Positions 38,001 through 44,000 of a DNA stretch of 64,000 bases are shown here, in pieces. Position 1 is the first letter of the stretch; each line of letters opens with the position of its first letter. Where the stretch lies: NCBI RefSeq assembly GCF_009931435.1, contig NZ_CP043414.1. The stretch is one strand, 5' to 3'. The position numbers are program-made. This DNA is from Escherichia coli (lineage in GTDB: Bacteria > Pseudomonadota > Gammaproteobacteria > Enterobacterales > Enterobacteriaceae).

Positions 38001-41000
38001 GTGTACCTGGAGACAAACGCTCTTCATAACTTGATGCATATTGATAATGCGACTCTACCGCTGATGAAGAATAATTTGTTGAAATAGCGACGACTCTACC
38101 GCTTTGTTCTTCTGCGGTAACAAGACTATAAAGATAGTTGTTACTACCGTTAAACTTTACGCGAAAAGCGCGGGTAGCGAGAGAAATATCAGAAGCAGAA
38201 GAGTACTGGCAACTTTCTTTATAGTTTACTTCCCGGGCTAGTTTCATCAACTCACGGTTAAGCCCTGTGCTATTAAGAAGTAATAATTTACGGATATCTG
38301 CAAGTGAGGCCCCTTGCTCAATCATCAATGCTAAATGTGTTCTTCGCGGCGTTGTATTTACATGATCCAGAGTGATAAAAGTTCTGGAACAATGATGATA
38401 ATACATTCTCCTCTGGCCTTGTGCAGAATATCCATATTTTTTGAGGGACGTGCCTCCGCAAGTTGAACATTGGCAAATCAAACCTCTCCAGGAGTGATTC
38501 ACAATATTACGATAAATATTAAGCGACTGTTCAGATATCACTGGAAACAAGTAACCACATTCACGGCATAAAATATTTTTACCCTGTGCGACATAATCCT
38601 GGCTATTCAGCACCCCCAGGTTTTTACATCCTGGTGTTTTGCAACAATCAACATTTACGTTGGTAAACATATCCACTCCCTGCGAATAGCCGTATCTTGA
38701 TATTGTTCAACGCGAAAAGAACCTGATTCAATGCGTAGCACTGAATCAGGCGGGCATAGCCCTAAATGGCATACATTACATTTATTATGATTATCAGGTT
38801 AGCCCCAGGTCACTGCTTCTGGTTTATCACCCCTGGCTTTCATTAATGAATCATTATCAATATCGGCTTTATACTTTAAGAACTTACCATACATTTGTTT
38901 TTCAATGTCTGGATTTTTACCTATCTGATTAATGGTCTCAAAACGATCGGTTTTGAGGTTGTATAGGTACTTTGGCTTATTGTTACGATCGATGATCATT
39001 TTCCAGTCACCATCACGTATCGCCCATTCGTCGGTTGGATCATCCTGGAATGGCATGTCAATTCCGAAGATTAATGGCTTTTCACGTTTTAGCGCCTTGT
39101 TCTCAAGGACAGGAACCAACGATTCGCCATCAAAAGTGCGGTCCGTCGGTAATTTGAAGTTCATCATTTTCGCCAGCGTTGGCATCCAGTCCAGACCATA
39201 AACTGGCGTATCTGAAACCATTCCCTTTGGAAGATGCTTTCCGTATTTAATAATCGCCGGAACACGGATGCCGCCTTCCCAAAGGTTATCCTTGCGACCA
39301 CGTAATCCATCAGTTTTCCCTGCCAAATTCAGTTCATAAACTTTACGTGCTTCACGGGTTACTGGGCCGTTATCACTGGTAAAAATAACGATGGTGTTAT
39401 CTTCTTCACCCATCGCTTTGATTTTATCCAGTACTTTTCCAACCTGAGCATCCAGATAACTGATGTTGGCATAATATTCTCCTGTACCACGCCAGGGTTT
39501 ATCCGCCCAGTCGCCATAAAATAAATCAGGATGCTGCTTCTGATAGTCGCTCATATAATGTGAGTACATGTCGAGGTATTTTTTGGGCGAAGCCAGGGGA
39601 CTGTGCACTTCGGTAAAAGCGACATAAAGGAAGAAAGGCTTACTATCCTTTTTGTTATCCAACCAGTTAACGACTTCCGAACTGACATACTCACCACTCA
39701 TTTTATCGGCACGAGGTGTAGGTTGCCCGTTACGCAACCAACCCGTCGGATACACCATACCAAAACGGGGACGCTCCTTCGCATTATCCAGAGTAGCGTC
39801 GGTAACAAAACCCGCCGTATTAACCAGTGAGTAATCAAAGCCCATATCTTTTGCCTGAGGCTGATCGGTACGATCGCCGCCTGCATTCAGATGCAGCTTA
39901 CCCATCATTGCCGTGTCGTACCCTTGCGCTTTGAGTAGATTAGCAATCGTGAGTTCGTTACGCCCTAAGGCAACATCTTTGCCTGAAGGAATCCATGAGC
40001 GAATTCCAGTACGAAATGGCATCCGGCCGGTTAATAGCCCAGCGCGTGAAGGTGAACTTAAAGGGGCGGGGGCATAGTAGTCAGTAAATTTGACCCCTTC
40101 CTGGGCAAGCCTGTCGATATTAGGTGTTTTAACGATCTGATGACCATATGTTGCTAAATCGCCATAACCTAAATCATCCGCCATAATAATGACTAAATTA
40201 GGTTGTTTAGCCTCTGCGGCTAAGGCAGGACTAAAAGCATTCCCTGTGCAAACTGCAAGGCCGATCAAACTGGCCATTAACGTTTTCTGCATAATTATTC
40301 CCTGATAAAAAATTAGAAATCATAACCAAGCATATAAATCATTTGATCGCCAAAGCCATCGTAGCCCAGCTTATTATCGAAATAACGCCACGTCACACTG
40401 GCTTTCCAGCGAGGATAGAACTTCCAGGCAATAGTTAAACCGCCATTTAACCCGTTCCGGCCAAATTGCTGCTCCGTGTAAGCATCGTTCCTGTCCAGTT
40501 CTATTTCATTCCAGTTAGATAAAACAAATTTTTCGTCAAATAACATAAATGGCAATACTGCTGTCCAGCCAACAACATAACCATTCCAACCATTCGTTTG
40601 ACCATATTTAGCTGATACGTAGTCACCAGATTGATTATGTAATCCAATATACGGTTTAAAAAAGCCCCACTCGCCGTTCCAGCCGAGGTAACCGAATCCA
40701 TAAAACATGTCCAGATCGTCACCCCATGAGTTATCCCATTGGCCATAAATTTTGCCAAAGAATGTCATATCAGAGTCAAAGAGTCTGACATGCGTCATTG
40801 CTGAAACCGTATGATTTCTCCCTGCTACAGCATGATTGAGTACATTACTTTCATAAAATGAGTAAAATTCTGCTTCTTTAAAATTTACCCCAAAATCCGC
40901 AGTCACTTTCCATACTTCACCACGGTGAGTGTTTACAAATCCACTATTCCAGTCTGCATAACCCGCATTTATTGAACCAAAGGTTCCTTTATATTCTAAT

Positions 41001-44000
41001 GAAGAATATGCAGGAAAATGATAGATAGCTGTTATCAGGGTACACGCAATAAGAAGTCATCTTTTGGCAGACATATAATATGTTCTCCATTCATTGTTTT
41101 TATGATTCCATAGGAATTAATACATCAGATAATTCATTTTGATTAAGAACGACTCAGAAAGTATATTTAAAGGTGAATGGCAAAGCGTGATGGAGATCGC
41201 AGATTACTTTTACCCCCGGGTGTGGAGGTATCGTGTTTCAAAAAGTGTGTCGATTTTAAATATCACTCATTGATTTATAAACATTTTTCCTCACAAAAAG
41301 AAAATTCAATTCTGTACAAGAATATTTTGTATCTTCTATTACTTTCTCCAGTAATAACTCACCATTCAGGCATAACTTAAACCTCTTGTTCATAATCTCA
41401 ACTTTTGTAAATGAAAACGCACATAAGAGTTAAAATAAACAATGTACTAAAGATTAATTACGCAAAAATGCGAGGCGTCTTCAGGATTAGAATCGATAAA
41501 ACAGAATGGGTTAAAGAGAGCGATATAATAGCGGCGGGTGCTTGAGGCTGTCTGTCTCAGGCATTAGCTGAACGGCAGATAGAGAAAAGCCCCGAGTGAT
41601 ATTTTACCATCAACCCGAGGCCCCCTATATGCAGAACACATGTAGAGTGCCTCTTACTGACCGTAAGGTCAAGGAGAAGAGAGCAATGAAGCAGCATAAG
41701 GCGATGATTGTCGCCCTGATCGTCATCTGTATCACCGCCGTAGTGGCGGCGCTGGTAACGAGAAAAGACCTCTGTGAGGTTCACATCCGAACTGGCCAGA
41801 CGGAGGTTGCTGTTTTCACGGCTTACGAATCCGAGTAAGAGCAACGGCGGGGAGTGATCCCCGCCACTTTACAGGTGCTCGCATATCTTCAACGCACCCT
41901 ATTTTTACCTGGCCTGCCCACGGGCAGGCTTTTGGGGAGGTTAGCGAGTCAGGTCGTCGAAAAACTTCTTCACACCATCAAAGAAGCTCTTTGAGCGCGG
42001 GCTGTTGTGCTCGCCGGTTGGGCCACCGAAGCTTTCTTGCAGCTCTTGCAGCAGCTGTTTCTGCTTCTCGTTCAGGCCTACCGGTGTTTCGACGACAACG
42101 CGGCACAGCAAATCACCCTGTGCGCCACCGCGGACAGACTTGACGCCTTTACCGCGCATACGGAACAGCTTACCGGTCTGGGTTTCGCCAGGCACTTTCA
42201 GTTTGACGCGACCATCAAGAGTCGGTACTTCGATTTCGCCACCCAGCGCCGCCATAGCGAAGTTGATCGGGACTTCGCAATACAGGTTGTTGCCTTCACG
42301 CTCGAAAATCGGGTGCTGTTTAACCTGAACCTGAACGTACAGATCGCCTGCCGGTGCGCCATGCTCGCCCGCTTCACCTTCGCCCGCAAGACGGATGCGG
42401 TCTCCAGTGTCCACTCCTGCCGGGATTTTAACGGACAGCGTTTTGCTGCGCTCAACACGACCATGACCATGACATTTGTTGCACGGATCTTTGATCAGCG
42501 TACCGCGGCCCTGACAGTGTGGACAGGTCTGCTGTACAGCGAAGAAGCCCTGGCGCATCTGCACCTGACCAGAGCCATGACAGGTCGGACAGGTCTGCGG
42601 CTGTGTACCTGGTTTTGCACCGCTACCGTGGCAAACGTCACACTCTTCCAGAGTCGGAATGCGGATCTCTTTGGTCACGCCACGTACAGCTTCTTCGAGG
42701 GTGAGCTCCATGTTATAGCGTAAATCAGCACCGCGCGCCGCACGTTGACGACCACGTCCGCCGCCAAAAATATCGCCGAAAACGTCACCAAAAATATCGC
42801 TGAAGTCTGCGCCGCCGCCAAAACCGCCGCCGCCCATGCCGCCTTGCTCAAACGCAGCATGACCATACTGATCGTATGCCGCACGTTTTTGCGAGTCGGT
42901 CAGAACTTCATAAGCTTCCTTGATCTCTTTAAATTTCGCCTCGGCCTCTTTGTCACCCTGGTTACGGTCCGGGTGGTATTTCATGGCCAGGCGTTTGTAG
43001 GCCTTTTTGATTTCACGCTCTTCCGCTGTTTTGGAAACGCCTAAAATCTCGTAATAATCTTGCTTAGCCATCTTTTTTAAATTGCCCCTAGATGAATGCA
43101 CGGGCGGAGAGGAAATTCCCCTTCGCCCGTGTCAGTATAATTACCCGTTTATAGGGCGATTATTTTTTGTCTTTGACTTCTTCAAATTCAGCGTCGACAA
43201 CATCGTCATCTTTCGCGTTGTTTGCAGAAGCATCAGCACCGGCAGTCTGCTGCTGGGCATGTTGCTGCTGGGCGATTTCCATCAGTTTCTGGGAAACCTG
43301 TGCCAGTTCCTGCATTTTCGCTTCGATAGCGGCTTTGTCTTCACCTTTCAGAGCAGTTTCCAGTGCAGTCAGCGCAGACTCGATAGCAGTTTTGTCGTCA
43401 GCCGGCAGTTTGTCGCCTGCTTCTTCAACCTGCTTACGGGTGCTGTGCAGCAGATGGTCGCCCTGGTTGCGAGTCTGTACCAGCTCTTCAAACTTACGGT
43501 CAGCTTCGGCGTTAGCTTCTGCGTCGCGTACCATTTTCTGGATTTCATCTTCGTTCAGACCAGAAGAAGCCTTGATGGTGATCTTCTGCTCTTTACCGCT
43601 GTTTTTATCTTTCGCGGAAACGTGCAGGATACCGTCAGCATCGATATCGAAGGTAACTTCGATCTGCGGCATACCGCGCGGTGCCGGGTTGATACCATCC
43701 AGGTTGAACTGACCCAGAGATTTGTTATCAGCTGCACGTTTACGTTCACCCTGCAGCACGTGGATGGTTACCGCAGACTGGTTATCTTCAGCGGTAGAGA
43801 ACACCTGGCTGTGCTTGGTCGGGATAGTGGTGTTTTTCGCGATCAGCGTCGTCATCACACCGCCCATGGTTTCGATACCCAGAGACAGCGGGGTAACGTC
43901 CAGCAGCAGTACGTCTTTTACGTCACCAGTCAGAACACCACCCTGAACAGCAGCGCCGATTGCTACAGCTTCGTCCGGGTTAACGTCTTTACGCGGCTCT

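Follow-up and report, generated by a model that had tools for sequence, protein, structure and literature searches.

Can a channel gene whose sixth codon is a stop still yield a channel? The question is raised by ompK in a stretch of 64,000 nucleotides (nt) of the Escherichia coli chromosome (RefSeq assembly GCF_009931435.1, contig NZ_CP043414.1). This whole stretch is called the window, and positions are counted from its first letter. The gene, on the minus strand at 40313-41074, belongs to the Tsx/OmpK family of outer-membrane channels, and its reading frame is broken by a TGA near the start of the signal peptide. A sequence-only reading of the window had proposed either a recent nonsense mutation that inactivates the gene or translation from a non-canonical start downstream of the stop. 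The evidence described below indicates that the allele, R6* (CGA>TGA), is very probably a recent, lineage-specific nonsense pseudogene of an accessory Tsx/OmpK-family channel, fixed in one clonal lineage.

The interrupted reading frame

On the minus strand, the ATG at 41074-41072 is followed by TCT GCC AAA AGA (Ser, Ala, Lys, Arg) and then by TGA at 41059-41057. Direct reading of the DNA therefore bears out, in position and description, the in-frame TGA at codon 6 after MSAKR that the sequence-only reading had reported. This codon is the single interruption of the ompK frame. Beyond it, the frame reads LLIACTLITAIYHFPAYSS... and stays open for 247 codons to the TAA at 40315-40313, with the C-terminus ...MLGYDF. 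The span is exactly 762 nt (253 codons plus stop), equal to the length of the coding sequence (CDS) that three RefSeq E. coli genomes annotate as 'outer membrane protein OmpK'. By this match in length and start, and by Pfam family PF03502, the span is assigned to an OmpK/Tsx-family outer-membrane channel gene and is classed here as a pseudogene. The start codon and a Shine-Dalgarno sequence, GGAG at 41088-41085, form a minus-strand segment (41072-41088) in which both elements are conserved among orthologues, as seen by direct reading and alignment.

A mechanical list of open reading frames (ORFs) returns a residual ORF of 197 residues from this locus (minus strand, 40313-40906). It runs from a GTG at 40906, which is codon 57 of ompK, to 40313, and is the same 197-residue frame ending in ...MLGYDF that had been noted before. 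Gene callers report this remnant as a truncated Channel_Tsx protein.

The ancestral codon and the reality of the stop

The RefSeq collection searched holds 5426 complete E. coli genomes. A 951-nt query around ompK found matches in 1273 of them, 1270 over at least 80% of the query. Three genomes were inspected (24A16CRGN010, N47, and APEC O1), and each has an intact 762-nt CDS, annotated as above, with the same ATG and the same GGAG. In a gap-free alignment, codon 6 of these three orthologues is CGA, CGA, and CGG, all encoding Arg. Codon 6 is a sense codon in each, and CGA is one of the two codons that had been predicted for intact copies. The codon 6 of the window (41057-41059, minus strand) is a single C>T transition away from CGA, located at 41059, and the next base is C, giving UGA-C in the mRNA. 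The OmpK proteins of the dnaJ-nhaA islet (WP_001274831.1, WP_001274832.1, and WP_001274823.1) share locus, start, length, and frame with the window copy. However, they have CGA or CGG at codon 6, whereas the window allele has TGA.

The same stop is found in other public assemblies. An exact-sequence look-up of the 197-residue remnant gave 25 blocks in a public assembly index; 24 contigs were read, and 10 loci were returned. At nine of these 10 loci, the 762-nt gene is identical to that of the window, including the TGA, and identity is 99.97-100% over 3.8-6.6 kb. The carriers are three NCBI assemblies (GCA_035607835.1, GCA_013900085.1 with CP057959.1, and GCA_054240625.1) and Logan assemblies of separate SRA/ENA runs (SRR23937428, SRR8353955, ERR4229124, SRR8354076, ERR14064360, and SRR30129413). 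A sequencing or assembly error in the source record, a doubt raised earlier to which the single-base difference from intact alleles could lend some weight, can be set aside with near certainty, since the identical allele in nine independent assemblies from different projects refutes it as far as public assemblies show and places the TGA allele as fixed in a clonal lineage.

Recency and selection

Compared with the WL297 allele WP_001274831.1, the window protein agrees at 252 of 253 residues, the lone difference being the stop. When codon 6 is set aside, 24A16CRGN010 and N47 each have an allele that is two synonymous substitutions and one amino-acid replacement away from the window gene. Over the intact alleles compared, the distance is 1-2 synonymous changes and no more than one amino acid. 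The window copy carries no further damage beyond the stop, and with the rest of ompK untouched, the nonsense event is therefore recent. Comparison of the N47-type and APEC O1-type genes gave a synonymous divergence (dS) of 0.56 and a ratio of nonsynonymous to synonymous divergence (dN/dS) of 0.045-0.048. Intact ompK is thus under strong purifying selection. The same ATG and the CGA or CGG codons of the orthologues, together with the nearly unchanged remainder of the gene, support the earlier proposal of a recent nonsense mutation inactivating the channel.

Among 22 neighbouring genes compared with WL297, an internal stop was found in ompK only. General Shigella-like genome decay was considered and rejected, as 21 of the 22 genes are intact.

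Two points weigh against a lineage-specific null allele. First, the RefSeq collection appears to be without the source genome and its close relatives. A 65-nt query across the stop site matched 929 genomes, none at 100% and each listed match one mismatch away, and this result of 0 in 929 applies to other lineages only. No exact match was found among the RefSeq complete genomes because the carrier CP057959.1 is absent from that collection. Second, UGA-C is a weak stop signal, so the R6* allele may be leaky rather than null.

Family and fold of the channel

The translation that follows the stop matches Pfam Channel_Tsx (PF03502) with 50.2 bits (cutoff 27.2, E=3.7e-13), and a protein search gave thousands of homologues. 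Because of this score above the cutoff and these homologues, a chance open frame is rejected. An AlphaFold2 (AF2) model was made of the intact allele of strain N47, with 24 homologues in the alignment. It reaches a predicted local distance difference test score (pLDDT) of 91.1 and a predicted template modelling score (pTM) of 0.80, with a helix at residues 3-18 followed by an all-beta barrel. In this model, the first barrel strand comprises residues 28-41 and residue 57 lies within the second strand. By the same model, the 197-residue remnant would begin partway into strand 2, leaving out strand 1 and the signal peptide. The best Foldseek match in the PDB is Tsx (1TLW; template modelling (TM) score 0.66, E=1.7e-7), and the next are OmpG and NanC. 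These matches indicate that ompK encodes a Tsx/OmpK-type channel with a predicted substrate-specific function. The term 'porin' used in the sequence-only reading holds loosely; according to Pfam and Foldseek, the protein is a 12-strand substrate channel of the Tsx/OmpK type and not a general trimeric porin.

The predicted signal-peptide segment spans about residues 1-24 or 1-25 (41000-41074, minus strand). It reads MSAKR, then the Arg that is replaced by the stop, then LLIACTLITAIYHFPAYS, and its probable cleavage site is placed from the AF2 helix and the N-termini of homologues. An N-terminus that is basic and then hydrophobic is found in all 24 aligned homologues, and the orthologues read MSAKRRLLIAC...AYS. 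The channel sequence ends in Phe (...MLGYDF), and the signal-peptide region of the window copy is cut by the codon-6 stop. A lipoprotein reading of the 'LIAC' motif was rejected: the four hydrophobic residues before Cys make too short a stretch, and the Cys is not conserved among homologues.

The channel resembles the Tsx nucleoside channel of E. coli (1TLW/1TLY, PF03502) in its Pfam match above the cutoff, in Tsx being the top structural match, and in a C-terminal Phe and an N-terminal signal peptide, the latter as predicted in the case of ompK. However, structure-based identity between the two is only about 13%. A PDB sequence search with the window channel gave no match at E<=1. Additionally, the genomic partner of the window channel is a sulfatase and not a nucleoside-metabolism gene. 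The channel also aligns over its full length (E=3e-34) with NCBIfam NF008574/PRK11528, a 254-residue enterobacterial family that we take to be YdiY. In contrast to members of this equivalog family, for which the cutoff is 282 bits, the window channel scores 119 bits and is therefore a paralogue.

Other knock-outs and the possibility of selected loss

The protein search also returned several truncated E. coli-type variants of the ompK product, which were then read at the DNA level; among the clusters listed, no full-length one was at least 90% identical to the query. G45* (GGA>TGA) occurs in a different genetic background (L011, SRR6840802). Y142* (TAT>TAA) occurs in an APEC-type allele (L015-L018; 28 index blocks, 24 contigs read), where the sulfatase is called full length (497 residues), and is absent among the 301 RefSeq complete genomes matching that allele class. 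Frameshifts by single-base deletions in or near a T6 run (nt 407-412) are found at L019 and L022; the neighbours are also broken in both assemblies, and both are to be read with the caveat of low assembly quality or Shigella-like decay. The complete genome of strain SX48 has an IS3 insertion into ompK (the loci listed include L023, NZ_CP142792.1). Loss of ompK is recurrent but rare across E. coli.

Recurrent loss could be adaptive if the channel were a phage or colicin receptor whose knock-outs are repeatedly selected. Tsx is the receptor for T6 and colicin K, and the OmpK of Vibrio is the receptor for KVP40. R6*, G45*, Y142*, the T6-run frameshifts, and the IS3 insertion are independent lesions in the same gene, which speaks for this explanation. 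However, the number of lesions is a raw count, not normalised to other accessory genes, and some of the frameshifts come from low-quality or Shigella-like assemblies with broken neighbours. Both R6* and Y142* are absent from the RefSeq complete genomes searched. Retention appears to be the rule among carriers of ompK, as an OmpK feature was present in 39 of 40 sampled rows, in a listing that does not show pseudogene flags. The protein is not known to serve any phage or colicin, and the literature search gave none that uses it. Adaptive loss is thus an unlikely explanation. A fuller version, in which selection has removed the channel again and again (for example, because it is a phage or colicin receptor), R6* is one convergent escape mutation, and the weak UGA-C maybe allows small heterogeneous residual expression, is a little less likely still.

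The locus is an ordinary nonsense pseudogene; its channel family is known, and the chromosomal module is already known as variable. Of wider note is only that independent knock-outs of ompK have arisen in several E. coli lineages, which gives a modest lead on selection, for example, by phages.

Translation past the stop

Poole, Brown, and Tate reportedly found in 1995 that, among the stop signals of E. coli, UGA with C as the next base is the weakest. Of the premature stops placed in E. coli reporters, TGA is read through most often, at roughly 0.7-6% for one tested position (PMC11126739), and UGA termination depends on both the fourth base and the RF2 allele (PMC5373646). A paper considered for the UGA-C context, PMC9841425, deals with eukaryotes and was set aside. 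The TGA of R6* stands next to C. If it were read by tRNA-Trp, the product would begin MSAKRW..., with K4 and R5 kept and the n-region still basic, and a functional amount of channel could result from a gene that is down-tuned and not dead. However, the TGA is conserved in no orthologue, and no stimulatory structure is present, as RNA folding at the stop gave an energy like that of shuffled controls (z=0.05). Non-K-12 RF2 variants bring about more efficient UGA termination (PMC5373646), which also argues against appreciable leakage. Product at a few per cent would amount to practical loss, and unambiguous knock-outs of ompK exist elsewhere. A functional channel from a leaky stop is therefore quite improbable. 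Low levels of full-length product with Trp6 are plausible as incidental, not programmed, read-through.

Selenocysteine insertion or other programmed UGA recoding was rejected. An Rfam scan gave no match resembling a selenocysteine insertion sequence (SECIS), with only two matches elsewhere at E<=1, both far below gathering scores; the fold at the stop is not unusual; and the orthologues have Arg, not UGA, at this position. The window contains no tRNA genes and no second ompK copy (a 30-mer occurs once), so a suppressor tRNA in the window and a compensating copy or paralogue were likewise rejected.

The proposal that translation starts past the TGA and gives a working protein, from a non-canonical codon such as ATT at codon 9 or from the GTG at codon 57, did not hold up and has very little probability. 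In its favour, no further stop interrupts the frame between the TGA and its normal end, and gene callers do call the 197-residue GTG ORF. However, all orthologues use the upstream ATG and its GGAG, none has a different start, and an ORF scan found no in-frame ATG, GTG, or TTG between the TGA and codon 57, which is the first canonical start. A protein initiated at codon 57 would have neither a signal peptide nor the first barrel strand. Starting at ATT codon 9 or CTG codon 13 would leave a signal peptide without the basic n-region present in all 24 homologues.

A second result of the C>T transition at 41059 is an out-of-frame ATG (41060-41058, in AGAUGA) that overlaps the TGA, with no evident consequence. 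This ATG (minus strand) opens a 23-codon ORF in the +1 frame, MTSYCVYPDNSYLSFSCIFFIRI, ended by a stop.

Predicted consequences of the nonsense allele

With R6* as a nonsense pseudogene, translation would begin at the usual ATG and end once five residues (MSAKR) had been joined. No precursor, consisting of the signal peptide and the 12-strand barrel, would be made, and the channel would be lost or present at trace level. ompK and the downstream periplasmic sulfatase gene are probably co-transcribed, because the sulfatase start lies 20 nt past the ompK stop, and a consensus scan found a strong terminator-like site after the sulfatase but none between the two genes. The strong site is a hairpin with a 14-bp stem and a T-run (38721-38751, minus strand), likely the end of the ompK-sulfatase transcript and called from the consensus scan only.

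Rho-dependent polarity could act on the roughly 740 nt of mRNA left untranslated, and sulfatase expression would possibly be reduced. Strong polarity on the sulfatase is weakened as a candidate by the ompK mRNA being G-rich over C, which argues against strong Rho utilization (rut) activity, and the step is uncertain. The pairing of channel and sulfatase suggests that the two form a module that takes up and desulfates some sulfated compound. For this lineage, loss of one accessory outer-membrane channel is predicted, and perhaps less use of the sulfated substrate of the sulfatase. The appropriate annotation for the locus is that of a pseudogene with an internal stop, not that of a 197-residue 'Channel_Tsx' protein.

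Genomic context

The window corresponds to the thr-dnaK-dnaJ-nhaA region of the E. coli chromosome in reverse orientation. Read along the minus strand, the gene order is dnaJ (41941-43101), hokC/mokC/sok, ompK, sulfatase, an IS1595-like gene, and nhaA. The islet formed by ompK, the sulfatase gene, and the IS1595-like gene (37200-41500) has a GC content of about 40%, compared with 50-56% in the nhaA and dnaJ flanks. In E. coli, the islet exists as two very divergent allele classes (about 90% DNA identity, with the dS given above for ompK), while identity in the core genes on either side is about 98-100%.

The sulfatase gene (38799-40292, minus strand) is intact and encodes 497 residues, which include a signal peptide and an S-S-P-S-R motif of the Ser type (Pfam Sulfatase, 3.4e-59); length and motif are as in orthologues. 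The motif is at residue 79 in all alleles examined, and no sulfatase-maturating enzyme gene is adjacent. The third islet gene (37429-38670, minus strand) is also intact and encodes 414 residues with an IS1/IS1595-type N-terminal zinc-binding domain, according to a domain search and comparison with WL297. Between dnaJ and ompK lies an intact hokC/mokC toxin gene with the sok antisense RNA (41536-41838, plus strand; Rfam RF01794, 116.9 bits, sok at 41536-41688). The gap from hokC/sok to ompK is about 460 nt of non-coding DNA with 35% GC.

Comparative genomics of E. coli has described a variable module, 'putative cerebroside sulfatase', that is flanked by hokC and nhaAR and has the same chromosomal position and neighbourhood as the islet, and a figure legend labels this region 'fragmented or conserved' among strains (PMC4182557). 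Unlike the present description, that figure legend names neither the channel gene nor the R6* allele. In the literature searched, nothing on this channel or allele was found beyond the figure legend naming the 'cerebroside sulfatase' module.

Elsewhere in the window, a fimbrial cluster (31210-35005, plus strand) is degraded. The gene for its major subunit is intact (31210-31743). That for the chaperone is broken into two ORFs that overlap (31794-32111 and 32066-32476), and that for the usher is in pieces (32489-34033). In E. coli WL297, these fimbrial genes likewise carry frameshifted or partial annotations. Between rpsT and this cluster, a 490-residue ORF (29494-30966, plus strand) is 99% identical to a WL297 'type III effector'.

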